The translations under genes were made by a program, and so were the position numbers. Positions 1,579 to 31,807 of a stretch of 64,000 bases of DNA are shown one piece after another. The stretch covers positions 8,441 to 72,440 of the forward strand of contig DATDEH010000072.1 of the NCBI GenBank assembly GCA_036523395.1, written 5' to 3'. Numbering within the stretch: the stretch's first letter is position 1; each line of letters starts with the position of its first letter. The notes under the pieces are model-generated. The model searched no databases, was not told the DNA's origin, and saw only the letters and a list, made by a program, of their open reading frames with translations. The DNA comes from Candidatus Limnocylindria bacterium. Its GTDB lineage: Bacteria; Chloroflexota; Limnocylindria; P2-11E.

Positions 1579-1706
1579 CGCGCGATTGTCCCACTCGGGG
1601 ACGACCGCGCGTGTATTTCCGCGGGCCGCCGGTGCGTCTTCGCCTGATGGCTGGCTCTTCTTGCGCGTGGCGGCCGACAAGGGTTGTGCAGCCAACGGCA
1701 GAAGTC

Positions 1707-1735: not shown

Positions 1736-1742
1736 AAAGCGC

Positions 1743-2111
1743 ATGGCAGGTGGTCACCGACCCGTCTACGTCATCTCCATCGCGGCCGGTCTCGCGGGCT
1801 GCCATCCGCGGACGCTACGGATCTACGAGGAGGAGGGCCTGCTCGAACCGGTCCGGACCGAGACGAACATCCGCCTCTACTCCGATGACGATCTGCAGCG
1901 CGTACGCGTGATCCGGTACCTGACACAGGTGCGCGGCGTGAACCTCGCGGGCGTGAAGCTGCTTCTTCACATGCGCGATGCTGCGGACCTGATGGAGGAC
2001 CTCATGCGCGAGCTCGCAGAGCTCGGCAGCGAAAAGGACGACGTGGACGGACAGGTGGACACCGCCGACCAAAGACCAAAGCGCGGCCGAACAGACGGCA
2101 CGCGCTTCTAA
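1743..2111 (+). CDS. hspR: HspR, MerR-family heat-shock transcriptional repressor
   Basis: MAGGHRPVYVISIAAGLAGCHPRTLRIYEEEGLLEPVRTETNIRLYSDDDLQRVRVIRYL is a MerR HTH typical of HspR. It sits immediately upstream of hsp20/lon/clpB. Confidence 0.85.
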   Translation: MAGGHRPVYVISIAAGLAGCHPRTLRIYEEEGLLEPVRTETNIRLYSDDDLQRVRVIRYLTQVRGVNLAGVKLLLHMRDAADLMEDLMRELAELGSEKDDVDGQVDTADQRPKRGRTDGTRF

Positions 2112-2703: not shown

Positions 2704-5211
<2,508 letters not shown>

Positions 5212-5281
5212 AGGGGTTGCAGGGGTGACTCCGCCGCTGAAGAGGGGGTTGCAGAGGGTTCTCCCCCTGCGATAAACGGGC

Positions 5282-6247
5282 ATGCCGGTCGAATACAAGG
5301 ACTACTACAAGACACTCGGCGTCTCGAAGAACGCGAGCGCCGAGGAGATCAAGAAGGCATACCGCAAGGCCGCGCGCCAGCACCATCCCGACATCAACAA
5401 GAAGCCTGAGGCCGAGAAGCGCTTCAAGGAGATCAACGAGGCCAACGAGGTGCTCTCCGATCCCGAGAAGCGCAAGCGCTACGACACCGTCGGTCCGGAG
5501 TGGGAGCGCTTCCGGCAAGGCGGCCAGCAACCCGGTGGATTCCAGTGGGTCTACACCGGCCAACCCGGCCAGGACCCGTTCAACGGCGGCGAAGCGGGAG
5601 GGTTCTCCGACTTCTTCCGCACGCTGTTCGGCGAGGGACAGACGGACTTCGACGCCGGGACACTCTTCGGGCGTCCGAGCACGCGGCGGCGTCGTGCGGT
5701 TGCGGGTACGGATGTCGAGAGCGAGGTCGAGGTAACGCTGGCGGAGGCGTACAAGGGCACCGAGCGATCGGTCGAGATGCGCCTCCCCGATGGAGCGACG
5801 CGCCGCCTCAGCGTGAAGATCCCGGCGGGCGTGAAGGACGGTCAGCGCATCCGGCTCGCGGGACAGGGCGCGCCGGGCAGCGCGGGCGGACCATCGGGCG
5901 ATCTTTTCCTCCGCGTGCGTGTGAGGCCGCATCCGGTCTTCGAGCGAGACGGTGAGGATCTGAGGCTGGTGTTACCCGTGGCTCTGCACGAGGCGCTGCT
6001 CGGCGCGGAGGTCACGGTCCCGACACTCAAAGGACGCGTGTCGCTCCGGATACCGCCCGAGACTCAGAACGGCCGGACCATCCGGCTCGCGGGGCAGGGG
6101 ATGCCGCGCGCGACCGGTGGGCACGGCGATCTGTACCTGACCGTCAAGGTCGTGCTGCCGACGAAGCTGACCGACAAAGAGCGCGAGCTCGTCACGGAGC
6201 TCGCGACGACACGCGCTGGTGAGGATCCCCGCAAGGGACTCCTCTAA
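5282..6247 (+). CDS. cbpA: DnaJ-class (type II/CbpA-like) co-chaperone lacking the Cys-rich zinc-finger domain
   Basis: J-domain with HPD (KAARQHHPDINK), a G/F-rich linker and a DnaJ C-terminal domain. It has no CxxCxGxG repeats. Confidence 0.88.
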   Translation: MPVEYKDYYKTLGVSKNASAEEIKKAYRKAARQHHPDINKKPEAEKRFKEINEANEVLSDPEKRKRYDTVGPEWERFRQGGQQPGGFQWVYTGQPGQDPFNGGEAGGFSDFFRTLFGEGQTDFDAGTLFGRPSTRRRRAVAGTDVESEVEVTLAEAYKGTERSVEMRLPDGATRRLSVKIPAGVKDGQRIRLAGQGAPGSAGGPSGDLFLRVRVRPHPVFERDGEDLRLVLPVALHEALLGAEVTVPTLKGRVSLRIPPETQNGRTIRLAGQGMPRATGGHGDLYLTVKVVLPTKLTDKERELVTELATTRAGEDPRKGLL

Positions 6248-6268
6248 AGAGATTGAGCAGGTAGTGAA

Positions 6269-8911
<2,643 letters not shown>

Positions 8912-13768: not shown

Positions 13769-15082
13769 GTGACGACCACTGACATGCTGGCGAAACCTAA
13801 CGGGACGAACGGACTCGGGGCCCGCGTACGCGAAGCGCGACGCGAAAGAGGCATGAGCCAGGCTCAGCTGGCCGGCGAGGAGCTCACCAAGGGGTTCATC
13901 AGCCAGGTCGAATCCGGCCTCGTTCGCCCATCTGTTCGTTCGCTCCAGATCCTCGCGGCGCGGCTCGGTAAGAGCCTGGATTACTTCCTCGGCGACGAGC
14001 CGCTCGCCACGTCGAAACGTCTTGTTTTCCACCGTTTGGCCGCGGAAGCCGCCGCCGAGCGGCGCGACTGGACCGTCGTCCGGGATGAAGTGACCCAGGC
14101 CCTCGTGGACAAGCCCGAGAAGCGCGAGCGCGCGACGCTGCTGCGCTTCCTGGCGCAAGCAGAGATGAACACCGGAAATCGTGAGGTCGCCTTCGACCGC
14201 ATCGGCGAGGCGCTCTCGCTCATCGACGCGACGGCGGACGCCGCCGAGGTCGCGCACCTTCTGCACCTCCGTGGCATCGCGTACGGACAGATCGGTCAGT
14301 ACGTCGCCGCAGCGGAGGCGCTCGAGGCGGCGCGCGACGCGATGGAGCGGCACGAGGTCAGCGATCCCCGTCTACGCGCACGCATCCTCGTCGCGCTCGG
14401 CACCGCCTATCGCCGTCTGAACCGTACCGCCAAGGCCATGCAGACCTATGTCTCGGCGCTGGACCTCGCGAGCGGCATCGACGAGCTCCGCCTCGCGGCG
14501 CAGGGCTACATGGGTGTTGCGGTCTCTCTCTATGACGCTGGTGAGCTCGACGGCGCGATCGCGAACTACCGCCGCGCGCTCGATCTCTTCACCCGTGTTG
14601 AAGACACCACGTTCCAGCTCCAGGTGCTGCACTCGCTCTCGTCGATCCACTTCGAGATGGGCAAGACCGATGAGGCACGTGAGCTCGCCCAGCGTGGCGC
14701 AGCGACGGCCCGCATGGTCCACGACGAAGGAATGGTCGTCGTCGCCGAGCTTGTGATCGCGCGGATCGCCCTCGTGAATGGCGACGCGGAGCAGGCGCTG
14801 AACATCGCGCGCCACGCCGAGAAAGTCCTCACCGATCAGCCCGTGCAGCGCGCCGACGCGCTCCGCGTCATCGGCGCGGCGAACGACGCGCTCAAGGCGT
14901 TCACCGCGAGCGACCGCGCGTACCGCAAGGCCGTCGAGCTCCTTGTGGAGGTGGGCGACCACCCGAACCTCTCGACGTTCGCTGCCGAGTACGCGATGAA
15001 GCTGCGCGCGCGCGGCGAGACCGATCAGGCCTTCCGCTACCTCGAGCTCGCGCGCACCCCGGTGTCCACCAACCGCACCTAG
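13769..15082 (+). CDS. XRE-family HTH + TPR-repeat transcriptional regulator (RNPP/Rgg-like architecture)
   Basis: N-terminal HTH_XRE (LGARVREARRERGMSQAQLAGEELTKGFISQVESGLVRPSVRSLQILAARLGKSLDYF), followed by about 350 aa of TPR-like helical repeats. Confidence 0.8.
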   Translation: MTTTDMLAKPNGTNGLGARVREARRERGMSQAQLAGEELTKGFISQVESGLVRPSVRSLQILAARLGKSLDYFLGDEPLATSKRLVFHRLAAEAAAERRDWTVVRDEVTQALVDKPEKRERATLLRFLAQAEMNTGNREVAFDRIGEALSLIDATADAAEVAHLLHLRGIAYGQIGQYVAAAEALEAARDAMERHEVSDPRLRARILVALGTAYRRLNRTAKAMQTYVSALDLASGIDELRLAAQGYMGVAVSLYDAGELDGAIANYRRALDLFTRVEDTTFQLQVLHSLSSIHFEMGKTDEARELAQRGAATARMVHDEGMVVVAELVIARIALVNGDAEQALNIARHAEKVLTDQPVQRADALRVIGAANDALKAFTASDRAYRKAVELLVEVGDHPNLSTFAAEYAMKLRARGETDQAFRYLELARTPVSTNRT

Positions 15083-19191: not shown

Positions 19192-20661
19192 ATGACCGAT
19201 CCGAACGGTGCGTCGACCCGGGAATTCGCGTCCTCGTTCAAACGCTTCATCGATGCGATGAACGCTGAGGCGGCGAAAGAGAGCAGCCCACTGCTCGAGC
19301 GACTGCGCGCGCATCTGGGCGGCGATCCCGGCCGCATGCCCATCGTCAGCGAGGACTTCGACAACTACGAGCATCCGAATGTCCAGGTCGCGCTCGACAA
19401 GGTGCTCTATTCGAACGGCCGGAGTGCTGATCTCGTCGGCTTCTCCGCTCCGAACAAACGATGGCAGCAGTTCGCGTTCTCGGATCTCCTGGCGACGAAC
19501 AGCCCATACGGACGGATCTCGGAAGGCCCCGTCGACTATGTGAACTTCCATCTCGAGGGCGACCGGACCCTCGCGTGCGTCCAGTACGGGCTCTTCTTTG
19601 TGACCTCAGGCGACGATCGGATGACCGTCTTCGTGGTCGGGCCCCCGACCCTGGAGATGGGGCCGCGGACCCGGCTTCGCGTCGAGGTCGCGTGCTCCCG
19701 CCGCGATGCCGCTCTCGCGCTGCTGCGCGATCTCACTGCCGCGAGTAAGGAGCTCAACGTCTACCGCGGCAAAGCGATCTCGCTCGCACCTGGCCAGTAC
19801 GGAGTGCAGTCGCTCGTGAAGTTCCACCGGCTGCCCAGCGTGCGCCGCGACGAGGTCGTACTACCCGACGGCGTGCTCGAGCGGATCGAGCAGCACGCGG
19901 TGCGCTTCTCCGACCACGCTGCGGCGCTGGTCGCGGCGAAGCGCTCGCTGAAGCGCGGCATCCTCCTCTACGGTCCGCCTGGCACCGGCAAGACGCTGAC
20001 CGTCATGTATCTCGCCACGCAGATGACCGGCAGGACGCTGATCATCGTGACCGGCCTCGGCATGGGCGGTCTCGGCACGATCGGTCAATTCGCCAGAGTG
20101 CTGGCGCCCGCGACCGTCGTTGTCGAGGACGTCGACCTCATCGCGCAGGAGCGCGGCATGCCGGGCCAGCAGGCGAGCCCGCTCTTATTCGAGCTGCTCA
20201 ACCAGCTCGATGGCCTTGCCGATGACGCCGACGTGCTCTTCATCCTGACGACGAACCGGCCGGACATCCTCGAGCCGGCACTCGCGGCTCGTCCTGGACG
20301 TGTGGACCTGGTCGTCGAGCTGCCTGTCCCAGATGCTCGAGGGCGCGCACGCCTACTCGAGCTCTATGCGCGCGGACTCACGCTAGAGGGCGTCGACTTC
20401 GCGCGTTACGTCGAGAAGACCGACGGAGCAAGTCCGGCGTACATCAAGGAGCTGCTGCGTAAGGCCGCGCTCCTCGCGGCGATCGCGGGATCGCGGGCCG
20501 TGACGCCGGAGCACTTCGACGCCGCGATGGATGAGCTCTCCGCCGGAGGCGAGCTCGCGAAGCGGATCGTCGGCTTCGGCACGTCGGGCGTCCCGCTGGG
20601 TCCGGTCGGACCGATGCGACCTGCGGGGTTCCCAGCGATCGAGGTCCGCCGGGCGCCCTGA
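19192..20661 (+). CDS. AAA+ (classic-clade) ATPase with an uncharacterised roughly 230-aa N-terminal domain
   Basis: ATG at 19192 (MTDPNGAST...). Walker A LLYGPPGTGKT, Walker B VVVEDVDL, and second region of homology TNRPDILEPALAARPGRVD. The upstream part of the track ORF overlaps purH and is not coding. Confidence 0.8.
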   Translation: MTDPNGASTREFASSFKRFIDAMNAEAAKESSPLLERLRAHLGGDPGRMPIVSEDFDNYEHPNVQVALDKVLYSNGRSADLVGFSAPNKRWQQFAFSDLLATNSPYGRISEGPVDYVNFHLEGDRTLACVQYGLFFVTSGDDRMTVFVVGPPTLEMGPRTRLRVEVACSRRDAALALLRDLTAASKELNVYRGKAISLAPGQYGVQSLVKFHRLPSVRRDEVVLPDGVLERIEQHAVRFSDHAAALVAAKRSLKRGILLYGPPGTGKTLTVMYLATQMTGRTLIIVTGLGMGGLGTIGQFARVLAPATVVVEDVDLIAQERGMPGQQASPLLFELLNQLDGLADDADVLFILTTNRPDILEPALAARPGRVDLVVELPVPDARGRARLLELYARGLTLEGVDFARYVEKTDGASPAYIKELLRKAALLAAIAGSRAVTPEHFDAAMDELSAGGELAKRIVGFGTSGVPLGPVGPMRPAGFPAIEVRRAP

Positions 20662-20663
20662 GG

Positions 20664-21362
20664 CTAGGCGAGCTCGATGTAGCGGAACGCCTCCGCGGCC
20701 GGGAGGTTCCACGTCGCGCCGATGCTCTTCGCCCACGCCCGCATCCGCTTCGGGAATTCGGTGCGGCCGCCGAGCTGCGAGCGGTGTGCCTGGAGCGCCT
20801 TGATCTTCCTATCGAGTGTGCCGCTGATGTCGAACCACACGTTCGGCTCGCGTGAGCCGAAGAGGAGGACGCGCGAGACCCGATGCTTCGCGAGCTTGCC
20901 GCCGCTCAGCTGGTCGGGAAAGAACAGGTGATCGCGAGCGGCAATGACGCCGTCCATGCCGGACCACCCCGCGACCCGGTGATCCGGATGGATCTGGTAG
21001 TGGCTCCACGGATCGTTGGTGAAGACGAGATCCGGCTTGTGCATCCGGATCGCGAGGCACACCTCTTCACGAAGGGCCATGGATCGCTCGAGCTCGCCGT
21101 CGTGGTGACGCAGGAACACGAACTCCTTGACGCCGATCGCCTCACCGGCGGCCCGCTGCTCCTTCTCGCGCGTCTCGGCGAGGGTCTCGGGCGGCATCTT
21201 CGGATCGTGCGTGCCCTTGTCCCCGCTGGTGAGGAGGCAGTACGTCACGTGCGTCCCTCGCTCGATGAATGCCGCGAGTGTCCCCGAGCAGCCGAAGTCG
21301 ACGTCGTCGGGATGCGCGACGACCGCCATCGCGCGCTTGGGGATCGCGAACGCGTCGGGCAC
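20664..21362 (-). CDS. PIG-L/LmbE-family N-acetylglucosaminyl deacetylase (MshB/BshB-like)
   Basis: AVVAHPDDVDFGCSGTLA...HPDH. Last gene of a three-gene operon. Confidence 0.85.
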   Translation of the reverse strand: MPDAFAIPKRAMAVVAHPDDVDFGCSGTLAAFIERGTHVTYCLLTSGDKGTHDPKMPPETLAETREKEQRAAGEAIGVKEFVFLRHHDGELERSMALREEVCLAIRMHKPDLVFTNDPWSHYQIHPDHRVAGWSGMDGVIAARDHLFFPDQLSGGKLAKHRVSRVLLFGSREPNVWFDISGTLDRKIKALQAHRSQLGGRTEFPKRMRAWAKSIGATWNLPAAEAFRYIELA

Positions 21363-21364
21363 GA

Positions 21365-22630
21365 CTAGACCTTCACCGCCGGTGAGGATGCCAGAACCAG
21401 GTCGTAGAGCGCGTTGATCTTGTCGCCAACGTTCTGCCAGGTGTAGTGCTCGGCGCGATCGCGCGCGCCGTGCGCGAGATGCATCCGCAGACGGTGGTCC
21501 GTGAGCACCTGCTCGATCGCGTCGGCGAGCGCCTGGTCGTCGCCGGCGGGAACGAGCAGGCCGGACTCGCCGTGCTCGATCAGCGTCTGAAGGCCGCCGA
21601 CGCGCGTGCCGACGACCGGTGTGCCGCAGGCCATGGCCTCGAGGGCGACGAGCCCGAACGATTCTGTTAGTGATGGGACCGCGCAGACATCGGCCGCGGC
21701 GTAGTAGAGCGCGAGCGTCTCCTGATCGAGCGAGCCGACGAAGTTGACGTTCGCCTCCAGGCGATGCTCGTGCACGAGCCGCCGGAGCTCGACGATCTTG
21801 TCGGTCTCGGGCGCGTCGTCACCCGGGTCGAGAGCTCCGCCGACGACGAGGAGGCAGACATCGCTGCGAAGGTCCGGCCGGCGCTGGAACAGCAGCCCGA
21901 GCGCGCGCAGCAGGACGTCGATCCCCTTGATCTGCTCGATGCGACCCACGAACAGCACGATGCGCTGGCACTGGTCGCGTCCGAGCTTCTCGCGCGCATC
22001 GGCCTGCCGGATCGGATGGAACAGCGTCGGGTCGACGCCGCACGGGATGATGTGGACCTTCGCCCCGTCCGCGCCGTAGAGCTCGCGCAGCTCGCCGAGC
22101 TCGATCTCGCTCGCCGCTACGATCGCCGCGGATTCCTGGACGGCCTCGCGCTCGATGGTGATGCGCACGTCGCTCTCGCCGTCGATGTCCTCGTCCATCA
22201 CCTCGCGCTTCACCAGGCCGAGGGTGTGGAACATCTGGATGCTCGGCACGCGCCAGCGGGCGGCGAGGGTGCGCGCGACGCTCGCCGAGAGCCAGTAGTG
22301 CGCGTGGATCAGGTCGTAGGACCGACCTTCGGCGGCGACGTACTCGTCGAGCTTCGCGGTGAACTCGTCGAGGTGGTCGTACACGTCCATCTTCGGCCAG
22401 TAGCCGATCGGCCCCGACTCGATGTGGACCACGCGCGCGTTCTCGCCGAGCTGTTGGATCCGCGGGTCGTACTTCTCGCGCCAGCGGGTGAAGACGTCCA
22501 CCTCGACGCCGCGCTTCCCGAGTACGCGCGCCAGCTCGCGAACGTAGACATTCATGCCACCCGAGTCTCGACCGCCAAGCTTTGCGAGCGGACATGCGTG
22601 GACCGACAGCATCGCGATGCGGCGAGTCAC
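21365..22630 (-). CDS. GT4 retaining glycosyltransferase, MshA/BshA-like
   Basis: N-terminus IAMLSVHACPLAKLGGRDSGGMNVYVRELARVLGKRG closely resembles MshA/BshA. A C-terminal GT1 domain with E...E motifs is present. Confidence 0.88.
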   Translation of the reverse strand: MTRRIAMLSVHACPLAKLGGRDSGGMNVYVRELARVLGKRGVEVDVFTRWREKYDPRIQQLGENARVVHIESGPIGYWPKMDVYDHLDEFTAKLDEYVAAEGRSYDLIHAHYWLSASVARTLAARWRVPSIQMFHTLGLVKREVMDEDIDGESDVRITIEREAVQESAAIVAASEIELGELRELYGADGAKVHIIPCGVDPTLFHPIRQADAREKLGRDQCQRIVLFVGRIEQIKGIDVLLRALGLLFQRRPDLRSDVCLLVVGGALDPGDDAPETDKIVELRRLVHEHRLEANVNFVGSLDQETLALYYAAADVCAVPSLTESFGLVALEAMACGTPVVGTRVGGLQTLIEHGESGLLVPAGDDQALADAIEQVLTDHRLRMHLAHGARDRAEHYTWQNVGDKINALYDLVLASSPAVKV

Positions 22631-23610
22631 GACAGAGAGGCCTCGAGCTTCGCGAGCCAGCGGTCCGTCGCGCCGAGGTCGTACTTGTACGGCTCGTCGC
22701 CGCGCAGCAGGTCGTACGTATCGAAGCGCTCCGCGATCGCCTCGCGGATCGCCCAGGCGTGGCTCACGATCCCGATCGACAGTGAGGCGAGCGCGGGATC
22801 GTAGGCCGCGTTGTACAGCGCGAGCGTTCCGCGGTACGCGAACGCGAAGAGCACCGCGGCATCCTGGTCGTGCGCGCGCAGCACGCCGAGACGGAGGCGT
22901 CCCAGCGGGGCAAGCGCGTCGGCGATGTCGCGGAAGAAATGCTCGACGTCCGGTGTCATGAAGTCGGCTTTCTCACCGCGCGAGAGGCGGTGCAGCGAGA
23001 AGAAGCGATCGAGAGTCGCGCCGCGCTCGGCGTCCGTGGCCCACCGGAACGTCGCTTGCGTCGCGTTCTCGAGGCGGCGGATCTTCCGGCGCAGCTCGTG
23101 CCGCTCCTTCTTTCCCAGACTCTGCACGTACGTCTCGAAGTCGCCCGGCAGACCGAGGCGGGGGCTGGTGATCAGCCGTGAGCGCTCGACCCGATAGCGG
23201 CGCGTAGCGAGCACCGAAGCGATGGCCTCGAGCGTTGGCGCGCTTTCCGGGACGAACTCGAGGCGGACGCGCCGCGGCCGCTCGCCGGCGATCCACTCCG
23301 CGACCGCTGTCGCAACTGCGCGCTCCTTGCCGACCGGGGCGACCACGTCCTGTTCATCGGTCAGCTCGCCGCCGGCGAAGCGGAGCGTGCCGTCCATGTC
23401 ACGCGCCAGCGCGGCGATACCGTGCGGCGCGTGGCCCACCGCGAGGGTGATCGCCTCGGCGCTGTCGTGTTCGCGCGCCACCGCCATCCACTCCGGAGTG
23501 AGGAAGATGCTCGCTGGCGATCGCCGCTCGGCGATCTGCGACCACGCTCCGGAGAGCTCGGCGGGGGCGCGCGGGGTACAGCCCGCGTCAGGCCCGGTCG
23601 TGAGGGTCAC
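22627..23610 (-). CDS. GNAT-fold acyltransferase of the Acetyltransf_6 (BioF2-like/CelD/FemAB-like) family
   Basis: 327 aa with a C-terminal DLLRGDEPYKYDLGA signature. GTG start at 23610. Translationally coupled to the downstream GT4 gene. Confidence 0.72.
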   Translation of the reverse strand: MTLTTGPDAGCTPRAPAELSGAWSQIAERRSPASIFLTPEWMAVAREHDSAEAITLAVGHAPHGIAALARDMDGTLRFAGGELTDEQDVVAPVGKERAVATAVAEWIAGERPRRVRLEFVPESAPTLEAIASVLATRRYRVERSRLITSPRLGLPGDFETYVQSLGKKERHELRRKIRRLENATQATFRWATDAERGATLDRFFSLHRLSRGEKADFMTPDVEHFFRDIADALAPLGRLRLGVLRAHDQDAAVLFAFAYRGTLALYNAAYDPALASLSIGIVSHAWAIREAIAERFDTYDLLRGDEPYKYDLGATDRWLAKLEASLS

Positions 23611-23670
23611 GTGCTTCCGAGTCTAGGGGGCACGCAGGAAGAACGTCCGCATCGTACCTATCATTCCCGC

Positions 23671-24831
23671 GTGCCCGAGCGCGACGCGCCGCGGGTCGTG
23701 ATCGCTCCCCAATCGTTCAAAGGCAGTGCCGACGCGGTCGCGGTCGCGAGCGCGATCGCGCGCGGCGTGCGGCGCACATGGCCACGCGCCGTTTGCGTCG
23801 AGCTACCGCTCGCCGATGGGGGAGAGGGGACGACGCTTGCCCTCGTGCGAGCGACCGGTGGTGAGATGCGTGGCGCTCGCGTGCACGATCCGCTCGGACG
23901 CGAGATCGACGCGCAGTGGGGCGTGCTCGGTGACCGCGTCACCGCGGTCCTCGAGATGGCTGCCGCGAGCGGGTTGCCGCTGCTTCGAGTGGTTGAGCGA
24001 GATCCGCGCATCACATCGACGCGCGGCACGGGCGAGCTCATCCTGGCCGCAGCCGCGTCGGGTGCGCAGCGGATCGTGATCGGGATCGGCGGCAGCGCGA
24101 CGAACGACGGCGGCGCGGGCATGGCGCGCGCGTTCGGCTATCGATTCTTCGACGCGCACGGTGCCGAGCTCGCCGAGGGTGGAGGCGCGCTCGTGCATCT
24201 CGCGCGCATCGAGGGACAGACCGATCCACGCCTCATCCGGCCCGCCATCGACGTCGCGTGCGATGTGCGCAATCCGCTGCTCGGTCCCGAGGGCGCCACA
24301 GCGGTCTACGGACCGCAGAAGGGCGCGACGCCGGAGATCCAACGCGCGCTCGAAGCCGCCCTCACGCGGTATGCCGACGTCGTCGAAGCGTTCGTGGGTC
24401 GCGACGTGCGGAGCGTGCCGGGTGCCGGTGCGGCCGGCGGCCTCGGGGCGGGGCTCATCGCGTTCCTCGATGCGCGGCTCGTCTCCGGATCGGCCCTGGT
24501 CCTCGACGCCGTCGGTTTCGATAAGCGTCTCGTCGGAGCGGACCTCGTGATCACCGGCGAGGGCCGGATCGATGGCCAGAGCAGCTACGGCAAGCTCACC
24601 CATGCCGTGACCGTTGCCGCCAAACGCCGCGGCGTCCCCGTCGTCGCGGTCGCGGGGACGGTCGGTCCCGGTCATGAGGCGATGCGTGAAGCCGGCATCG
24701 AGGCCATCGAGACGCTCGCGGGCACGTCGGACGCCGACCGAGATGCCGCGATCCGCTACCCCTTACCACGCATCGAGGACGCGGCCGAGCGACTGGCACG
24801 CGGTCGTGCACCGGCGCGCGGAAGCCGATAG
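23671..24831 (+). CDS. glxK: Glycerate kinase
   Basis: VVIAPQSFKGS...PLADGGEGT...VITGEGRIDGQS are glycerate kinase family signatures. GTG start at 23671. Confidence 0.85.
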   Translation: MPERDAPRVVIAPQSFKGSADAVAVASAIARGVRRTWPRAVCVELPLADGGEGTTLALVRATGGEMRGARVHDPLGREIDAQWGVLGDRVTAVLEMAAASGLPLLRVVERDPRITSTRGTGELILAAAASGAQRIVIGIGGSATNDGGAGMARAFGYRFFDAHGAELAEGGGALVHLARIEGQTDPRLIRPAIDVACDVRNPLLGPEGATAVYGPQKGATPEIQRALEAALTRYADVVEAFVGRDVRSVPGAGAAGGLGAGLIAFLDARLVSGSALVLDAVGFDKRLVGADLVITGEGRIDGQSSYGKLTHAVTVAAKRRGVPVVAVAGTVGPGHEAMREAGIEAIETLAGTSDADRDAAIRYPLPRIEDAAERLARGRAPARGSR

Positions 24832-24841
24832 GGTCTGGCCC

Positions 24842-25831
24842 ATGCTCGGTCCGCCGATCCCCACCGATCGCACTTCCAGCCTCGAGCTCGTGCGCATCAC
24901 CGAAGCGGCGGCGATCTCGGCCGCGCACTGGATGGGACACGGCGACAACGACCGCGCTGACGAAGCTGCGGTCGAGGCGATGCGCAAGGCGATGGATGAG
25001 GTCGCGTTCCACGGGACCGTCGTCATCGGCGAGGGCGAGCGCGACCAGGCACCGATGCTCTACATCGGTGAGAAGGTCGGTCGTGGCGAGGGTCCCGAGG
25101 TCGACATCGCGGTCGACCCGCTCGAGGGGACGAACCCCGTCGCGAAGGGCCGCGCGAACGCGCTCGCGACGATCGCCGTGTCGGAGCCCGGAGGCCTGCT
25201 GCACGCGCCGGACACCTATATGGACAAGCTCGTGGTGGGAAAACCTGCGGCAGGGAAGGTCGATCTCGACCGCCCGGTCGCGGAGAACCTCAAGATCATC
25301 GCGAAGTCGCTGAATCGCGATGTCGACGACCTCACCGTCGTCGTACTCGACCGACCGCGTCACGCACAGCTCATCGCGCAGCTGCGCGCGGCCGGATCGC
25401 GCATCAAGCTCATCGAGGACGGCGATCTCATGGCGGCGATCTCGGTGGCCGTGGCGGGCACCGGTGTGCACGCCGTGATGGGCATCGGCGGCGCACCCGA
25501 GGGCGTGCTCGCAGCGGCAGCTCTGAAGTGCCTCGGTGCGGAGATCCTCGGCCGTCTCAAGTTCCGCAGCGACGAGGAGCGCGAGCGCGCGAAGAAGATG
25601 GGCGTCGTCGACGACGGGCGCGTGTACCGGACCGACGATCTTGCGAGCGGACGCGATGTGCGATTCGTCGCGACGGGTGTCACCGACGGCGATCTTCTGC
25701 AGGGCGTTCGTTTCTTCGCCGGTGGCGCGCGGACCCACTCGGTGCTGATGGATCGCCGGCTCGGGAAGCTCCGCTTCATCGACTCGACGCACTTCGAGGA
25801 CCCGGCGAATCCACCCGTCGTCCGGCTCTAG
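24842..25831 (+). CDS. glpX: Class II fructose-1,6-bisphosphatase (GlpX)
   Basis: ATG at 24842 (MLGPPIPT...). Contains RITEAAAISAAHWMGHGD...DIAVDPLEGT...GIGGAPEGV. Confidence 0.9.
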   Translation: MLGPPIPTDRTSSLELVRITEAAAISAAHWMGHGDNDRADEAAVEAMRKAMDEVAFHGTVVIGEGERDQAPMLYIGEKVGRGEGPEVDIAVDPLEGTNPVAKGRANALATIAVSEPGGLLHAPDTYMDKLVVGKPAAGKVDLDRPVAENLKIIAKSLNRDVDDLTVVVLDRPRHAQLIAQLRAAGSRIKLIEDGDLMAAISVAVAGTGVHAVMGIGGAPEGVLAAAALKCLGAEILGRLKFRSDEERERAKKMGVVDDGRVYRTDDLASGRDVRFVATGVTDGDLLQGVRFFAGGARTHSVLMDRRLGKLRFIDSTHFEDPANPPVVRL

Positions 25832-25905: not shown

Positions 25906-27300
25906 GTGCCCACGCGCACCCGTCGGCATCGCGCGGCCCCGGACTCTCCAGCACTGCGCCAGCTCGGTCAGCGCCTTCGTGAGGCACGCGTCGCGGCGGG
26001 GTTGAGCCAGGCTCAGCTGGGGTCCCCGTATTACACGCGTGCCCACGTGAGCGCGATCGAGCTCGGGAAGATCCATCCCGCGATGAAATCCCTCGAGCAC
26101 ATGGCCGCGAAGCTTGGGAAGGCGGCCTCCTACTTCGTGGAAGACGCCGCGGTCGCACGTTCTCGTCGCGAGCAGGAATTCGACGTCGATCGCACGATCG
26201 CTCTCGCGTCGCGGATGACCGCCGCGGACTGCATCAGGCAGGCCGATGAGCTTCTCGAACGCGATGCGCTTTCGACGAATCAACGCAGCCGCCTTCACCT
26301 CGCGCGCGCGCGGGCCTTGAATCTGACTGAGCGGCCGAGTGGGGCCCTTCGAGATCTGACGATCGCGCAGCGCCTCGCCGCGCAGCTCAAGGACCCAGGG
26401 TTAGCGCACACCATCGACTACGAGCTCGGGGCCGCGACACGCGGGACCGGAGACTCATTGCGCGCACGGGACCTCTTCCTCGCCCTGCTCGGAACCCTCG
26501 AACGGAGCAACGATCGGGATCGCCTCCTACGGATACGCGTGCTGCAAGCACTCGGGGCAGTTTGCGTCGATCTCGGTGAGCCTCAAGCAGCGGCTGGCTA
26601 CCTCAATTCCGCACTCGAGTGGGCTCAGGACGTCGGCGACCTCAGCGCGTTGTTCGCGATCTACTACGCCTTAGCCGTGTCGCATCGTGCTCAGGGCGAT
26701 CTCGAGATCGCGACCACGTATCTGCAACGCGCTCTCGCGGCAAGCGAGGTGGCCAGGGATCTGACAGCGACCGCGATCGTCCACAACATGCTGGCTGTGA
26801 TCGCTGCCGACGGCGGTCGGGTTCAGGCCGCGTATGAGCATGCCGACCGCGCGATCGACCTCGGTCGGATGGCCGGACCGATCGTGTACGTCGCGCATTA
26901 CCTGAACACAAAGTCCGAGTGCGCTGCCAAGCTGGGTGATTGGACGACGGCCGAGCACGCCGCACGGGAGTCACTGGCCCTCGGGAAGACGGCCGAGAAT
27001 CAGGTGGCGGCTGCGGCCGGTCACGTCGCGCTCTCACAAGTGTTCGAGCATCGCGGCGAAGGTGAGGTGGCAACTCGCGAACTCCTACAAGCGGCCGACA
27101 TATACCGCAGCCTCGGCTCGAAGGCGGAGCTCGCAGACGTGCTCATGAGGCTCAGCCGCGCCGCTAAGGCACGCGGCGATCTCGTCGAGGCGGAGCGTTT
27201 CGCGACGCTGGCGTTCGAGGCGACCCGCTCGATAAGCACGTTCGTGGATGCGGCTAGCCGCCCGCCGTCTGCGCCTCCGCGGCGGTCAGCACATTCCTGA
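25906..27300 (+). CDS. XRE-family HTH + TPR-repeat transcriptional regulator, paralogue of 13769-15082
   Basis: HTH_XRE (LGQRLREARVAAGLSQAQLG...VSAIELGKIHPAMKSLEHMAAKLGKAASYF) followed by TPR-like repeats. Same architecture as the first regulator. No adjacent small ORF was seen. Confidence 0.75.
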   Translation: MPTRTRRHRAAPDSPALRQLGQRLREARVAAGLSQAQLGSPYYTRAHVSAIELGKIHPAMKSLEHMAAKLGKAASYFVEDAAVARSRREQEFDVDRTIALASRMTAADCIRQADELLERDALSTNQRSRLHLARARALNLTERPSGALRDLTIAQRLAAQLKDPGLAHTIDYELGAATRGTGDSLRARDLFLALLGTLERSNDRDRLLRIRVLQALGAVCVDLGEPQAAAGYLNSALEWAQDVGDLSALFAIYYALAVSHRAQGDLEIATTYLQRALAASEVARDLTATAIVHNMLAVIAADGGRVQAAYEHADRAIDLGRMAGPIVYVAHYLNTKSECAAKLGDWTTAEHAARESLALGKTAENQVAAAAGHVALSQVFEHRGEGEVATRELLQAADIYRSLGSKAELADVLMRLSRAAKARGDLVEAERFATLAFEATRSISTFVDAASRPPSAPPRRSAHS

Positions 27301-28782: not shown

Positions 28783-28919
28783 TTTTTCATCCAGAAGAGG
28801 CTGAGGGAACGGCCCGATGACGCCTCGGCAACCAGCGGAGGCCCGCTACGGTGCCAACTCCGGCCCTGAAGATCAGGGAAAGATGAGAGAGGGTCGACCC
28901 GCAAGGGCGACTTCTCTTG
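28783..28919 (+). ncRNA. SAM-I (S-box) riboswitch with an intrinsic terminator, leader of metF
   Basis: Matches S-box cores. P1 is UUUUUCAUC (28783-28791) paired with GAUGAGAGA (28883-28891). Core motifs GAGGGA-ACGGCCCGAUGA-CGCC-UCGGCAACC, GGUGCCAACUCC and AAAGAUGAGAGA are present. The terminator is GUCGACCC-GCAA-GGGCGAC (28894-28912) followed by UUCUCUU. Confidence 0.85.
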
Positions 28920-28941: not shown

Positions 28942-29862
28942 TTGAGCAACCTGGCAGCGCTCCTCCGGCAGGGCGAGTTCGTCGTGACCGCCGAACTCAA
29001 CCCGCCCAAGAGCGCATCCGGGACCGCCGTGAAGCGTCGGGCGGCCATCCTGAGGGGCACCGTCGACGCGGTCAATGTCACCGACAGCAACCGCAGCGTC
29101 GTGGCGATGGCCGCGATCCCGGCCGCGTTGCTGGTTCGCGAGGCCGGCGTTGAGCCGGTCGTCCAGATCACGGGACGCGACCGGAACCGGATCGCCCTCC
29201 AGGCGGACCTGCTCGGTGCCGCCGCGCTCGGTCTCGCGAATTTCCTGTTCATGAGCGGCGACGACCCAAAGCACGGGAATCACCCGGACGCCGTGCACGT
29301 CAAGGATCTCGACGGCGTTGGCCTGGTGAAGATGGCGGTCGGCATGCGGGACGACCATAGGTTCCTCTCGGGCGACGAGATAAGGCAGGCACCCGAGTAC
29401 TTCATCGGCGCGACGGCATCGCCGTTCACCAAGCCGATGTCGGCCGATCTCGAGCGCACCGTGGAGAAGATCAACTCGGGCGCGGACTTCCTGCAGACGC
29501 AGCCGGTGTTCGATCTCGCGACGTTCAGTCAATGGCTCGCCGAGCTGCGGCGCATCGGCGGCGGGCGCCAGGCGTCCGTCATCGCCGGAGTCCTCGTGCT
29601 TCGCTCCGCCGAGCAGGCCGAGCGTGTCGCACGCGTGCCCGGCGTCGCTCTCGGACAGGATGTCGTCGATCGGCTCAAGAAAGCGCCCGACGCGGAGCAG
29701 GAGGGCATCGCGATGGCAGTCGAGATGTCGAAGTCGCTGCGGGCCCTCCCCGGTGTTCACGGCGTGCATCTGTACTCGATCGAATGGCCCGAAGCCGTTC
29801 CATTGGTGGCGGAGCGCGCGGGCCTCTTGCCACGACCGAAGGTAAAGGAGTCGAACTCATGA
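28942..29862 (+). CDS. metF: 5,10-methylenetetrahydrofolate reductase
   Basis: TTG start (MSNLAALLRQGEFVVTAELNPPKS). MTHFR TIM-barrel motifs are present. ATGA overlap with the next gene. Confidence 0.85.
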   Translation: MSNLAALLRQGEFVVTAELNPPKSASGTAVKRRAAILRGTVDAVNVTDSNRSVVAMAAIPAALLVREAGVEPVVQITGRDRNRIALQADLLGAAALGLANFLFMSGDDPKHGNHPDAVHVKDLDGVGLVKMAVGMRDDHRFLSGDEIRQAPEYFIGATASPFTKPMSADLERTVEKINSGADFLQTQPVFDLATFSQWLAELRRIGGGRQASVIAGVLVLRSAEQAERVARVPGVALGQDVVDRLKKAPDAEQEGIAMAVEMSKSLRALPGVHGVHLYSIEWPEAVPLVAERAGLLPRPKVKESNS

Positions 29863-30821
29863 AGACGACCGTGATCGGCGCGTATCCCAAGATCTCTGAC
29901 GAGCACCAGGACCTGCGCCGCGCGCTGCACCGTTACGACCGCGGGGAGCTCGACGCTGACGGACTCTCCGCCGTGCTCGACGAGAGCACGCGGTGGGCGA
30001 TCGGCGAGCTCAACTGGGCAGGCATCGACGTGATCAATGACGGACAGATCCGCTGGGACGACCTGCTCGCTCCGTTCGCGCGCGCCTGGAACGGGTGCGA
30101 TCGCGGAGCGCTCGAGCGCTTCTACGACAACAACACCTACTTCAGGCAGCCGGTCATCACCGGACCGATCACGACCGACGGCAAGACGCTCGTGCGCGAT
30201 TTCGAATTCGCGCGCCGCGAGGCTCGGGGTGAGCTGAAGGCGGCGGTCTGCGGCCCGCTGACATTCGCGACGCTCTCAGAGGACAGCCACTACAAATCGC
30301 TCGAGGAGCGCACGCTCGCCGTCGCCGATGCGATCGCGGCGGAGATCCGCGGGCTGGGGGCGGCGGGCGCGACCCTTGTTGATGTCGAGGAGCCGGCGCT
30401 CGTCGCGCACCCCGAGCACTTCGCTATCGCCCGCGCGGCCATCGAGCGTCTCGCGGCGGCCGGCGTGCCACTCGCGCTCCAGACCTACTTCTTCCCGGCC
30501 GATCCGCTTCTCGATGCGCTCGCGGCGTTTCCCATCGCCCAGGTCGGCATCGACGTGCGAAGCCGCGACACGCGTGTTCTCGAGAAGCTCACCGGGCTTC
30601 GCCAGACCGTGGTCCTCGGCATCGTCGACGCGCGCAACACGCGCGTGGAGACGGAACGGGAGCTCGTCGGTCTCATCGAGGCGGCTCTCAGGCGGATCCC
30701 GGCCGAATACCTCTGGCTCGCCCCGACGACGGGGCTCGAATACCTGCCGCACGACGTCGCGGTGGAAAAACTGAAGGCGCTGGTCTCGGCTGTGCACGCG
30801 ACCGGAGGGGTGAAAGCATGA
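29859..30821 (+). CDS. MetE N-terminal-like (UROD/MetE-fold) domain protein, no Zn ligands
   Basis: 320 aa (MKTTVIGAYPKI...) with MetE-like fold signatures but no His/Cys/Cys zinc triad. Translationally coupled to the catalytic half (ATGA at 30818). Confidence 0.75.
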   Translation: MKTTVIGAYPKISDEHQDLRRALHRYDRGELDADGLSAVLDESTRWAIGELNWAGIDVINDGQIRWDDLLAPFARAWNGCDRGALERFYDNNTYFRQPVITGPITTDGKTLVRDFEFARREARGELKAAVCGPLTFATLSEDSHYKSLEERTLAVADAIAAEIRGLGAAGATLVDVEEPALVAHPEHFAIARAAIERLAAAGVPLALQTYFFPADPLLDALAAFPIAQVGIDVRSRDTRVLEKLTGLRQTVVLGIVDARNTRVETERELVGLIEAALRRIPAEYLWLAPTTGLEYLPHDVAVEKLKALVSAVHATGGVKA

Positions 30822-31807
30822 GCGATCAGGTGCTGCTCACGACGAGTGTTGGCTCGTTCGGAAAGCCCGATTACCTGCAGAAGGCACGGAACGCGAACGC
30901 GCGCGGGAAGCTCGGCGATCCCGAGCTGAGCGAGCTCGAACGTAAGGCCACCGAGGAGTGGATCCGCCGTCAAGAGCGCCTCGACCTCGACATCCTCGTC
31001 GACGGCGAGATGTATCGCGGCGACATGGTCGCGTACTTCGCCGAGCGTCTCGATGGGTTCCGCATCGGCGGTCTCGTGCGCTCCTATGGCAACCGCTACT
31101 ACCACAAGCCGATCATCGCCTCGAAGGTCGCGCGTCCAAAGCCGATGACCGTCGATTGGTTCCGCTTCACGCAGTCCCTCACGGATCGGCCGGTGAAGGG
31201 AATGCTCACGGGGCCGTACACGATGCTCGACTGGTCATACAACGAGGCGTACAAGACGCGTCGTGAGGCGGCGCTCGCGCTGGCGGAGGTCGTGCGTCAA
31301 GAGGCGGAGGATCTCCAGGCCGCCGGCGCGCGCTACATCCAGATCGACGAGCCCGCCATCCACGCGCGGCCCGAGGAGATCGACATCGCCATCGAGGCGA
31401 TGGGTGTGGTCACCCAGAACCTCGACGCAAAGACGATCTCGCACATCTGCTACGGAGACTTCGCCGCGATCTATCCGAGAGTCCTCGACCTGCCGGTCGA
31501 TCAACTCGACCTCGCGATGGCGAACTACGAGTACCGATGGCTGCAGCTCTTCGACAAGAACCCGTTCACGAAAGAGCTGGCGATCGGCATCGTCGACGTG
31601 CACCAGCACGAGACCGAGACCGTCGCGGTGGCCGCCGAGGGCATCCGCAAGGGCCTCCGTTACGTCTCGAAGGAGCGGCTCTTGCCCCATCCCGACTGCG
31701 GACTGAAGACGCGTACCGTCGAGGAGTCCGAGGAGAAGTGCCGCGTCGTTGTCGAGGCGACCAAGGTCGTGCGGAAGGAGCTGGCGCGGCAGGCGACACC
31801 GGCCTAG
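30818..31807 (+). CDS. metE: Cobalamin-independent methionine synthase catalytic (C-terminal) domain protein
   Basis: 329 aa with Zn-binding residues HICYGDF...E...HPDCGL and YIQIDEPA. It is a stand-alone C-terminal MetE domain. Confidence 0.85.
   Translation: MSDQVLLTTSVGSFGKPDYLQKARNANARGKLGDPELSELERKATEEWIRRQERLDLDILVDGEMYRGDMVAYFAERLDGFRIGGLVRSYGNRYYHKPIIASKVARPKPMTVDWFRFTQSLTDRPVKGMLTGPYTMLDWSYNEAYKTRREAALALAEVVRQEAEDLQAAGARYIQIDEPAIHARPEEIDIAIEAMGVVTQNLDAKTISHICYGDFAAIYPRVLDLPVDQLDLAMANYEYRWLQLFDKNPFTKELAIGIVDVHQHETETVAVAAEGIRKGLRYVSKERLLPHPDCGLKTRTVEESEEKCRVVVEATKVVRKELARQATPA

Follow-up and report, generated by a model that had tools for sequence, protein, structure and literature searches.

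The locus lies in a 64-kb stretch of DNA (hereafter the window, meaning the whole stretch analysed) from Candidatus Limnocylindria, an uncultured soil Chloroflexota bacterium. At 20664-23610 it comprises three co-directional genes, read in the order acyltransferase, GT4 glycosyltransferase and LmbE/PIG-L deacetylase, next to a short intergenic region:

22627-23610, minus strand: Acetyltransf_6 acyltransferase, 327 aa (ORF and Pfam)
21365-22630, minus strand: GT4 glycosyltransferase, 421 aa (ORF and Pfam/NCBIfam)
20664-21362, minus strand: LmbE/PIG-L zinc de-N-acetylase, 232 aa (ORF and Pfam)
23611-23667, no strand: divergent intergenic region between the acyltransferase gene and an oppositely oriented glycerate kinase gene, presumed promoter site(s)

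The presence of these genes and their operon structure are direct observations, and all three ORFs fall exactly at the coordinates and on the strand given by an earlier sequence-only reading of this DNA. The same reading described three tightly overlapping genes, which holds for the first junction, where the TGA stop of the acyltransferase and the GTG start of GT4 share 4 nt (GTGA), but not for the second, where a 2-nt spacer separates the GT4 stop from the LmbE start. Its family assignments were borne out by Pfam, with 108 bits for Acetyltransf_6 (PF13480; gathering threshold, 22; residues 168-309), 143 and 102 bits for Glycos_transf_1 and Glyco_transf_4, and 103 bits for PIG-L (PF02585; cut-off, 28.2); the N-terminal string that it quoted corresponds to GT4 residues 8-38. 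The GC3 of the three genes (0.88-0.90) is like that of the other genes of the window, and an identical GT4 protein was found on contigs of three independent sequencing runs, with the longest contig carrying all three genes. No sigma-70 consensus could be recognized in the region 23611-23667, the presumed site of the promoter(s), and this region may be partly coding because the true start of glycerate kinase is uncertain. The Gly_kinase domain starts at residue 92 of the longest ORF (Pfam), and the public gene call places the glycerate kinase start back-to-back with that of the acyltransferase.

The database search returned hundreds of acyltransferase homologues, and a GT4 gene comes immediately after the acyltransferase gene in 77 of the 80 loci compared (31-87% identity), which span Limnocylindria, Dehalococcoidia, SAR202, Anaerolineales, Thermoflexus, Dormibacteria, Tectomicrobia, and a MAG of Thermodesulfobacteriota. 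This cross-phylum linkage, also a direct observation, agrees with the earlier proposal that the three genes form an operon unit. The exact 4-nt overlap recurs in 17 of 45 acyltransferase-GT4 pairs. LmbE directly follows GT4 in every Limnocylindria locus with enough flank (16/16) as well as in loci L038 and L051; of 45 Dehalococcoidia-type loci, 22 have it at a distance of up to 6 kb, in Dehalococcoidia 1-3 kb downstream, and the same 6-kb range contains no LmbE in the loci of Dormibacteria and Tectomicrobia. Glycerate kinase is kept as a neighbour in 18 of 19 Limnocylindria loci, the remaining one being without upstream flank, and was not seen in the other lineages of the 80-locus set. Such a gene order might reflect inherited synteny without any shared function, and many of the flanks clearly belong to a conserved housekeeping gene order, with hom, thrC, folE, and rpsF-ssb-rpsR beside the Dehalococcoidia loci and glpX, glycerate kinase, and purH beside those of Limnocylindria. 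Yet these flanks are wholly different between lineages while the acyltransferase-GT4 pair persists, often with its 4-nt overlap, and LmbE recurs in different arrangements, which makes this explanation highly improbable in our view. The comparison supports the view that the three genes act as one conserved functional unit, and the pairing of GT4 and deacetylase with a FemX-like enzyme recurs in several abundant uncultured lineages and appears to be undescribed.

The best NCBIfam model for GT4 is MshA (TIGR03449), at 357 bits (377-383 bits for its relatives) and below the cut-off of 462.5, compared with 128 bits on the BshA model TIGR03999 (cut-off, 273.7). Hence, from the earlier label of MshA/BshA-like, the BshA part falls and the MshA part stands, as MshA appears to be the characterized enzyme closest to GT4 by phylogeny, although TeSPS, the Thermosynechococcus sucrose-phosphate synthase (SPS) Tll1590 (PDB 6KIH), ties with it by raw score. 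Even so, MshA-like is not a specific label on model scores: genuine CgMshA reaches 720 bits on TIGR03449, and TeSPS, a proven SPS and not an MshA, itself matches this model best, with 289 bits. Among PDB entries, GT4 is closest to CgMshA (263 bits) and TeSPS (261 bits), and the Tectomicrobia homologue is closer to TeSPS (293 bits) than to CgMshA (276 bits). Because TeSPS is as close as CgMshA, the donor sugar and acceptor of GT4 are not readable from homology.

Conservation of individual residues was observed directly. We take the residues of CgMshA that bind the phosphate of inositol phosphate to be K78, Y110, T134, and R154, a list reportedly set out by Vetting et al. in 2008. They align to K80, Y112, T136, and R156 of GT4; in a set of 57 linked GT4s the Y, T, and R never vary, nor do the catalytic residues, and the K is present in 37. 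These residues do not single out inositol phosphate, as two of the positions, R105 and R178 in TeSPS, serve there to bind the phosphate of sucrose-6-phosphate.

Together with the tied scores and the poor discrimination of the MshA model, these shared positions favor an SPS-like GT4 that would use UDP-Glc to form a compatible solute or neutral sugar phosphate, with LmbE and the acyltransferase as mere neighbours that act on something else. We judge this very unlikely, since GT4 reaches only 149 bits on the SPS model TIGR02472 (cut-off, 576), and the 57 linked GT4s all agree with MshA in having Thr at MshA position 134, where TeSPS has Ser. Moreover, in a tree of moderate support, built by neighbour joining only with one MshA and one SPS reference, CgMshA is nested among the acyltransferase-linked GT4s and TeSPS branches outside this clade in 71.5% of bootstraps, whereas TeSPS groups with the linked GT4s without MshA in only 4.5%. 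An N-acetyl-hexosamine route is likewise favored by the recurrence of LmbE and by the overlapping start and stop codons that tie GT4 to the acyltransferase in different phyla. The phylogenetic placement proposed by the sequence-only reading, which had named clustering with SPS-like enzymes as its refutation, thus separated GT4 from SPS by tree and gene context, but only narrowly, because TeSPS ties with CgMshA as the best solved relative and itself reaches 289 bits on the MshA model. We predict from these comparisons that GT4 is a retaining glycosyltransferase with UDP-GlcNAc as the GlcNAc donor and a phosphorylated polyol or sugar as the acceptor.

The metal and catalytic motifs of the deacetylase are recognizable as AHPDD and HPDH. 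Its likeness to MshB or BshB, as first suggested, did not survive, since its closest PDB relatives are archaeal diacetylchitobiose deacetylases (127 bits), which act on GlcNAc-glycosides; the best NCBIfam model is BshB1 (TIGR04001) with 102 bits (cut-off, 182.5), and the MshB model TIGR03445 gives 24 bits (cut-off, 224). LmbE is predicted from its family to strip the N-acetyl group from a GlcNAc-glycoside, exposing the amine.

The AlphaFold2 model of the acyltransferase (pLDDT, 94.3; pTM, 0.90) is that of a stand-alone globular protein without membrane domain, with a pair of GNAT domains and a helix spanning residues 167-181. In a Foldseek search against the PDB, the top 27 matches are aminoacyl-tRNA-dependent transferases (TMq, 0.56-0.69), i.e., FemX, FemA, Sbb17/Sba18, and MprF-type (DUF2156) domains, one of them (2HQY) being annotated as of unknown function; the Sbb17 and Sba18 structures are bound to the amino sugar streptothrisamine. 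Fem-type enzymes typically combine a double GNAT fold with a positively charged helix in domain 2, which binds the acceptor stem of the tRNA, and have an aromatic residue just before the catalytic Lys (PMC12945691). In the acyltransferase, helix 167-181 opens GNAT domain 2 and reads KKERHELRRKIRR; in an alignment of 26 diverse members its stretch K167-R179, with 8 Lys/Arg, is invariant or nearly so, and Y308-K309-Y310 is invariant. Y308-K309 is a candidate counterpart of F304-K305 in FemX and F328-K329 in DhpH-C, at a comparable distance from the C-terminus. Sequence identity to solved Fem-type members is 8-18%, HMMER found no detectable similarity to any PDB chain, and weak matches to FemAB_like and FemAB occur in 21 and 6 of the 26 family members, respectively. 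The earlier FemAB-like assignment is upheld by fold and, weakly, by sequence.

Pfam places the Acetyltransf_6 domain under the heading Acetyltransferase (GNAT), and the enzyme might be an ordinary GNAT that moves a non-acetyl acyl group from acyl-CoA to the deacetylated glucosaminide, yielding an N-acyl-glucosaminide such as a glycolipid headgroup or compatible solute, which was the alternative raised by the sequence-only reading. Deacetylation followed by reacylation is chemically sensible, the sole NCBIfam match, a weak one of 25 bits, is the crotonyl transferase BspF, and acyl-CoA GNATs of the tandem type, MshD and a glucosamine N-acetyltransferase among them, did turn up in the fold search. 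However, these rank below all 27 aminoacyl-tRNA-dependent matches (TM-scores, 0.37-0.53), no significant acyl-CoA GNAT family match was found among the members searched, most of which match FemAB_like or FemAB, and the Q/R-x-x-G-x-G/A motif for the CoA pyrophosphate is absent from both GNAT domains in the family alignment. With the basic helix matching a Fem hallmark and the Y-K pair a candidate for another, we consider acyl-CoA-dependent N-acylation improbable. The acyltransferase is probably an aminoacyl-tRNA-dependent transferase adding an amino acid, and its predicted target is the free 2-amino group of the glucosaminide produced by GT4 and LmbE. To our knowledge, no Pfam Acetyltransf_6 member has been shown to use aminoacyl-tRNA.

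We propose a model, held tentatively at a little short of an even chance, in which the three genes form a translationally coupled operon and the locus makes an N-aminoacyl-glucosaminide by the logic of mycothiol and bacillithiol synthesis, with a tRNA-dependent ligase in the place of MshC or BshC; all substrates are those we infer as follows. (i) By homology, the MshA-type GT4 would join GlcNAc from UDP-GlcNAc to a phosphorylated acceptor, for which inositol phosphate, a sugar phosphate, or phosphoglycerate are candidates; (ii) judging from its family and context, LmbE would take off the acetyl group to leave a free 2-amino group; and (iii) as fold, motifs, and gene linkage suggest, the FemX-like Acetyltransf_6 enzyme would move an amino acid from aminoacyl-tRNA to this amine, standing in for the ATP-dependent ligases MshC and BshC. 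As the sequence-only reading had noted, neither of these ligases is present here: a scan of about 50 ORFs of the 64-kb window, covering all of those with at least 360 aa, and of recurrent neighbours in the 80 loci found no match to a CysRS-like (MshC), BshC, or other ligase family. A 563-aa ORF of the window matches no Pfam or NCBIfam model, and no dedicated tRNA or aminoacyl-tRNA synthetase paralogue was found linked to the cassette.

Cysteine would be the most attractive candidate amino acid, the product then being a low-molecular-weight thiol; that the Acetyltransf_6 enzyme ligates cysteine from Cys-tRNA(Cys) in place of MshC or BshC nevertheless seems to us doubtful. If true, a tRNA-dependent route would supply mycothiol, or a new thiol resembling it, to Limnocylindria of soil and freshwater, marine SAR202 and other Dehalococcoidia, Dormibacterota, and Tectomicrobia, and the so far unidentified major redox buffer of these abundant uncultured Terrabacteria-type lineages would be defined. 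It would further point to this pathway as the older one, from which the mycothiol synthesis of Actinobacteria descends or to which it is sister.

The proposed chemistry has a precedent in Orf11, which acylates an amino-sugar amine in a Gly-tRNA-dependent manner (PMC12945691). With Orf11, Sba18, and Sbb17, Fem-type enzymes of streptothricin-type pathways, the acyltransferase shares the double GNAT fold and the basic helix of domain 2, and it has a candidate for the aromatic-Lys motif near the C-terminus; it differs in its distant sequence, its Acetyltransf_6 assignment, and its primary metabolism-like context as opposed to an antibiotic cluster. The same logic of GT4, deacetylase, and cysteine addition, cysteine being here a candidate, is that of bacillithiol synthesis (BshA, BshB, BshC), and BshB1 is the closest NCBIfam model to LmbE. 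In contrast, GT4 is far from BshA by model and by structure (95 bits to that of B. anthracis), BshC was not found in the window, and the phosphate-binding residues suggest a phosphorylated acceptor in place of malate. Other GT4 and LmbE pairs placing free glucosamine on an acceptor are PIG-A/PIG-L in GPI synthesis and BtrM/BtrD or NeoM/NeoL for aminoglycosides; their acceptors differ, and we know of none of these modules that is followed by Fem-type aminoacyl transfer.

The product might instead be an envelope or membrane glycoconjugate, with GT4 putting GlcNAc on a lipid- or polymer-linked acceptor, LmbE deacetylating it, and the Fem/MprF-like enzyme aminoacylating the headgroup, to give a cationic aminoacylated glycolipid or a modified surface polysaccharide and not a soluble cofactor. 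GPI synthesis begins with a GT4 and PIG-L pair, and the GT4 and LmbE steps would parallel those of PIG-A and PIG-L for GlcNAc-PI. MprF-type enzymes can make lysyl-glucosyl-diacylglycerol, and the aminoacyl-phosphatidylglycerol synthase domains of MprF, tandem GNATs with a basic helix, are among the best fold matches of the acyltransferase, whose JGI family name is 'CelD/BcsL ... cellulose biosynthesis'. A DUF502 membrane protein directly follows GT4 in about 31-33 Dehalococcoidia/SAR202 loci, a divergent GT28/MGDG-synthase-like gene occurs in both Dormibacteria loci, and a gene for a Wza-like exporter lies downstream in one Tectomicrobia locus. These neighbours hint at an envelope product, against the soluble-conjugate reading, but they vary by lineage and none is in the window. 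Furthermore, the closest characterized GT4s (MshA, TeSPS, and GlgM) all take soluble phosphorylated acceptors and the phosphate-holding Y, T, and R are invariant, whereas PimA and PimB, which act on lipids, reach no more than 76-90 bits against GT4. MprF carries a membrane flippase domain in the same chain and forms an ester with a lipid hydroxyl, while the acyltransferase is predicted to be stand-alone and soluble and is linked to amine-generating enzymes. As the MshD-like partner of Dehalococcoidia/SAR202 also fits a small-molecule pathway, we regard an envelope product as unlikely.

The soluble N-aminoacyl-glucosaminide that we favor finds its nearest analogy in the mycothiol of Actinobacteria (MshA, MshA2, MshB, MshC, and MshD), with a GT4 of the same subclade that keeps the phosphate-binding and catalytic residues and an LmbE-family deacetylase after it. 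In contrast to mycothiol, the linked enzyme is a Fem-type tandem GNAT, the CysRS-paralogue ligase MshC was not found in the window or the 80 loci, the deacetylase is not MshB-like, and the hosts are Chloroflexota, Dormibacterota, and Tectomicrobia. The sequence-only reading took the GT and deacetylase pair as the core of a thiol pathway, and this stands in part: no gene reached the curated cut-off of the MshA, MshB, BshA, BshB, or MshD models, but the analogy is strengthened by an MshD-like tandem GNAT in 24-27 Dehalococcoidia/SAR202 loci, where a PHP phosphatase is sometimes present as well. No MshD-like gene is present in the 64-kb Limnocylindria window. The best NCBIfam model of this tandem GNAT is MshD (TIGR03448; 110-114 bits over full length; cut-off, 163), and M. 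tuberculosis MshD is its closest characterized solved relative. It could N-acetylate the added amino acid and the phosphatase, where present, could take the phosphate off the acceptor, so that these loci could represent a near-complete mycothiol-type pathway. In an Entotheonellaceae locus, a single-domain GNAT lies directly upstream in place of the MshD-like tandem GNAT.

The acyltransferase, GT4 and LmbE genes were found co-directional on the minus strand, exactly where the sequence-only reading had placed them:

22627-23610, minus strand: acyltransferase, 327 aa, Pfam Acetyltransf_6 at 108 bits (cut-off 22)
21365-22630, minus strand: GT4, 421 aa, Glycos_transf_1 at 143 bits and Glyco_transf_4 at 102 bits
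20664-21362, minus strand: LmbE, 232 aa, Pfam PIG-L/LmbE at 103 bits

Its description of three tightly overlapping genes was almost right, as the TGA stop of the acyltransferase and the GTG start of the GT4 share GTGA, but the GT4 stop and the LmbE start are 2 nt apart. This arrangement of an overlap and a 2-nt spacer points to translational coupling of the three genes. Their GC3 (0.88-0.90) is like that of the other window genes, and the identical GT4 protein was recovered on contigs of three sequencing runs independent of each other, where the longest contig has all three genes; near homologues carry the name Candidatus Limnocylindria, Chloroflexota. A promoter and terminator scan of the operon gave nothing informative.

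The acyltransferase was aligned with 25 diverse representatives (31-69% identity), and this 26-sequence alignment was scanned over one genome per GTDB species, where at least 571 stretches encode a relative; linkage was scored in the best 80 loci by local tblastn and ORF clustering. A GT4 homologue lies directly 3' of the acyltransferase in 77 of these best 80 loci. The pair is present in 18/19 Limnocylindria loci (the exception is a truncated contig), 47/49 from Dehalococcoidia and other Chloroflexota, 4/4 from SAR202, 2/2 from Dormibacteria and 2/2 from Tectomicrobia/Entotheonellaceae, and also in one MAG each of Anaerolineales, Thermoflexus and Thermodesulfobacteriota, with the exact 4-nt overlap at 17 of the 45 junctions for which both ORFs were called. 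Gene order reflecting nothing but synteny deserves hardly any credence, since the pair stays while its flanks are wholly different by lineage (glpX, glycerate kinase and purH in Limnocylindria; rpsF-ssb-rpsR, hom, thrC and folE in Dehalococcoidia), and inherited synteny thus cannot explain it. Wherever the flank of a Limnocylindria locus is long enough (16 of 16 loci), LmbE comes directly after the GT4, as it does in two further loci (L038 and L051), and in 22/45 Dehalococcoidia-type loci it is on the same strand, 1-3 kb downstream; none was seen within 6 kb in the Dormibacteria or Tectomicrobia loci. Altogether, ~9,200 cluster representatives (50% identity) match the acyltransferase, and no fewer than 571 GTDB species genomes encode its RHELRRKxRR subfamily. 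Carriers include the complete Dehalococcoidia chromosomes OZ242014.1, OZ220748.1, OZ240206.1, OZ244780.1, OZ244810.1, OZ252225.1 and OY282565.1. When cultured carriers were sought with the Thermoflexus homologue, only MAGs came up. Two homologues carry internal repeats: P0217 (809 aa), dropped as an informative fusion, is the whole Acetyltransf_6 protein duplicated head-to-tail in one polypeptide, and P0189 (401 aa) has a ~90-residue repeat around the basic helix that may be an assembly artefact.

The AlphaFold2 model of the acyltransferase, built on the 26-sequence alignment (pLDDT 94.3, pTM 0.90), consists of two GNAT domains joined via helix 167-181. When this model was compared with the PDB by Foldseek, the first 27 matches were aminoacyl-tRNA-dependent transferases (TMq 0.56-0.69), namely FemX of S. 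aureus and W. viridescens, FemA, the MprF aminoacyl-phosphatidylglycerol synthase domains, and Sbb17 and Sba18, which are annotated as "aminoacyl-tRNA-dependent peptide synthase" and were solved with the amino sugar streptothrisamine. Acyl-CoA tandem GNATs, including MshD, came below those 27 (TMq 0.37-0.53). By sequence, no relative in the PDB came up when the family profile was searched with HMMER, and Pfam FemAB_like was weakly matched by 21/26 members (best E = 2e-6) and FemAB by 6/26. Fem-type enzymes are marked by a double GNAT fold, a positively charged domain-2 helix binding the tRNA acceptor stem, and a catalytic Lys after an aromatic residue (F304-K305 in FemX, F328-K329 in DhpH-C); one of them, Orf11, acylates streptothrisamine from Gly-tRNA (PMC12945691, 2026 review). 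In the acyltransferase alignment, K167-R179 (KKERHELRRKIRR), the first helix of domain 2, and Y308-K309-Y310 are invariant. The family has the double fold and the basic domain-2 helix of Fem-type transferases, and Y308-K309 is a candidate for the aromatic-Lys pair, with K309 as the putative counterpart of FemX K305. The lone match to an acyl-CoA-type GNAT among the 26 members (Acetyltransf_17, one member, E = 0.13) was not significant, and the CoA-pyrophosphate motif Q/R-x-x-G-x-G/A was seen in neither GNAT domain when the alignment was read by eye; N-acylation dependent on acyl-CoA is, in our view, improbable.

Against NCBIfam, the GT4 best matches MshA (357 bits, cut-off 462.5), with the sucrose-phosphate synthase (SPS) model TIGR02472 at 149 and BshA at 128 bits. 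Its best solved relatives tie, Corynebacterium glutamicum MshA (CgMshA) at 263 bits and the Thermosynechococcus SPS Tll1590 (TeSPS) at 261 bits, and a Tectomicrobia homologue scores higher with TeSPS (293 bits) than with CgMshA (276 bits). As a control, TeSPS, a proven SPS (PDB 6KIH; PMC7264703), itself best matches the MshA model TIGR03449 at 289 bits, well above the SPS model at 145 bits (CgMshA scores 720). Thus, "MshA-like" is not diagnostic, best-hit annotation of this GT4 subclade is unreliable, and the names "MshA" or "D-inositol-3-phosphate glycosyltransferase" are unsafe for such GT4s. The sequence-only reading had proposed to place the GT4 phylogenetically, and the outcome was mixed, with CgMshA nested in the tree but TeSPS as close by raw score. 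In this neighbour-joining tree (rooted on GlgM, 200 bootstraps, thin reference set), CgMshA always nests among the GT4s adjoining the Acetyltransf_6 gene, whose monophyly without MshA appeared in 0/200 bootstraps, and TeSPS falls outside in 71.5% of replicates. Moreover, 57/57 of these linked GT4s have Thr where MshA has T134, and TeSPS has Ser there. The nesting and this Thr tilt the GT4 towards MshA rather than SPS. An SPS-like GT4 among unrelated neighbours was taken seriously, was downgraded on tree position and gene context, and seems very unlikely.

The residues that we take to hold the phosphate of inositol-1-phosphate in CgMshA (K78, Y110, T134 and R154) align to K80, Y112, T136 and R156 of the window GT4; of these, the Y, T and R do not vary within the GT4 clade, nor do the catalytic and UDP-phosphate-binding residues. 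Two of these positions are also those of TeSPS R105 and R178, which bind the S6P phosphate (PMC7264703). What can safely be concluded is that the GT4 is predicted to be of the retaining type and to act on a soluble phosphorylated acceptor. It is the LmbE partner, and not the GT4 itself, that suggests UDP-GlcNAc as the donor. LmbE has both AHPDD and HPDH motifs; among solved structures it is closest to archaeal diacetylchitobiose deacetylases (127 bits, with BshB at 50-60 bits), and its best NCBIfam model is BshB1 (102 bits, cut-off 182.5; MshB 24 bits). It is predicted to de-N-acetylate GlcNAc-glycosides and is not an orthologue of BshB or MshB specifically.

As the sequence-only reading had noted, no MshC or BshC is encoded in the window: none of the ~50 scanned ORFs, every ORF of at least 360 aa included, belongs to a CysRS-like, BshC or other ligase family. 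Among the remaining recurrent neighbours of the 80 loci, which matched Amidohydro_3, thymidylate kinase, MBL-fold hydrolase and others, no ligase, CysRS paralogue or inositol-phosphate synthase was found, and the cassette has no recurrent tRNA or aaRS gene nearby. Where one would expect the ligase, the loci consistently have the Acetyltransf_6 gene. Further partners occur in Dehalococcoidia/SAR202. A ~305-aa tandem GNAT lies on the opposite strand beside or between GT4 and LmbE in about 24-27 loci; its best NCBIfam model is the mycothiol synthase MshD (110-114 bits over the whole model, cut-off 163), and its closest characterised solved relative is M. tuberculosis MshD. A CpsB/PHP-type phosphatase is present there in 8 loci, its start overlapping the LmbE stop in one of them (L062). 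One Entotheonellaceae locus has instead a single-domain GNAT directly 5' of the acyltransferase, and an MBL-fold hydrolase lies downstream in both Tectomicrobia loci. Across the wider locus family, three of the four named mycothiol enzymes thus have homologues, and a candidate phosphatase comes in addition. The 64-kb window itself encodes neither an MshD-like nor a DUF502 protein.

We propose a model in which the GT4 would form GlcNAc-alpha-(phospho-acceptor), LmbE would uncover the amine, and the Fem-type enzyme would put an amino acid on this amine with aminoacyl-tRNA as donor; in Dehalococcoidia, the PHP partner would dephosphorylate and the MshD-like partner would N-acetylate, completing the pathway. 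A mycothiol-type pathway in which a tRNA-dependent ligase takes the place of MshC is the best-supported reading, to which we give slightly less than an even chance; the specific version with cysteine as the amino acid and a thiol as the product is doubtful. An envelope product, i.e., an aminoacylated glycolipid or polymer, is rather unlikely, although it is favoured by the likeness of the acyltransferase to MprF, a GT28 in Dormibacteria, one Wza-like neighbour and DUF502. This last membrane protein directly follows the GT4 in about 31-33 Dehalococcoidia/SAR202 loci (e.g., L062 8267-9133 and L035 8163-8885, both on the plus strand), and product export or membrane anchoring are among the possible leads for its function.

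Since no cassette gene passes the curated thresholds of mycothiol or bacillithiol families, we place the cassette outside both, as a system that would work in a similar way. In the open-access literature on mycothiol and low-molecular-weight thiols, Chloroflexi, SAR202, LmbE-FemAB and Acetyltransf_6, no description of the cassette was found; a SAR202 MAG paper merely names a "mycothiol maleylpyruvate isomerase" homologue. The cassette is a concrete candidate thiol pathway for lineages that are dominant in certain soils (Limnocylindria), in the dark ocean (SAR202) and in cold deserts (Dormibacterota). For most Chloroflexota and their uncultured relatives among the phyla, no low-molecular-weight thiol is known to us. 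If true, a tRNA-dependent ligase joining cysteine or another amino acid to a glucosaminide would form the central amide bond of mycothiol- and bacillithiol-type cofactors in a new way, and a large uncharacterised branch of Pfam Acetyltransf_6 would gain a function. We know of no in vitro reconstitution of the BshC step of bacillithiol.

The operon sits in ordinary chromosome, with two divergent genes upstream and, downstream, a convergent AAA+ ATPase followed by PurH:

19192-20661, plus strand: AAA+ ATPase, 489 aa as called in public contigs, converging on LmbE with stop codons 2 nt apart
23611-24831, plus strand: glycerate kinase, divergent from the operon
24860-25831, plus strand: GlpX (class II fructose-bisphosphatase), divergent from the operon

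The divergent glycerate kinase and GlpX genes recur in 18/19 Limnocylindria loci (the 19th is without upstream flank) and were seen in none of the other lineages. Phosphoglycerate might be the acceptor, but as the glycerate kinase neighbour is confined to Limnocylindria this stays only a lead, and the arrangement may be plain synteny. The AAA+ ATPase gives weak matches to the anti-phage ATPase IteA (64 bits) and to models of proteasome-activating nucleotidase and of FtsH type; the closest GTDB relatives (L004-L006) lack it and have PurH directly after LmbE, which marks it as a strain-variable insertion.

Other window genes include Lon, DnaJ, ClpB, FolD, MTHFR, MetE, Rho and citrate synthase. 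A full-length SAM riboswitch (RF00162, 84.6 bits, 28784-28889, plus strand) lies directly 5' of the MTHFR gene (28942-29862), after which comes a MetE-like cobalamin-independent methionine synthase (30818-31807), and together they look like a SAM-regulated methionine/one-carbon operon. Two regulators with an N-terminal HTH and TPR, which may be paralogues, are encoded on the plus strand at 13769-15082 (437 aa) and 25906-27300 (464 aa, its HTH read by eye only), and one of the two borders the operon neighbourhood on the GlpX side. An ORF at 55199-56890 (plus strand, 563 aa) has a gene-like GC3 of 0.85, and neither Pfam nor NCBIfam has a model that matches it. Lon protease, DnaJ and ClpB form a proteostasis cluster in a row (2704-8911, plus strand), divergent from which is an atypical Hsp70-like protein of 499 aa (245-1744, minus strand) matching the PRK11678 chaperone model at 122 bits.
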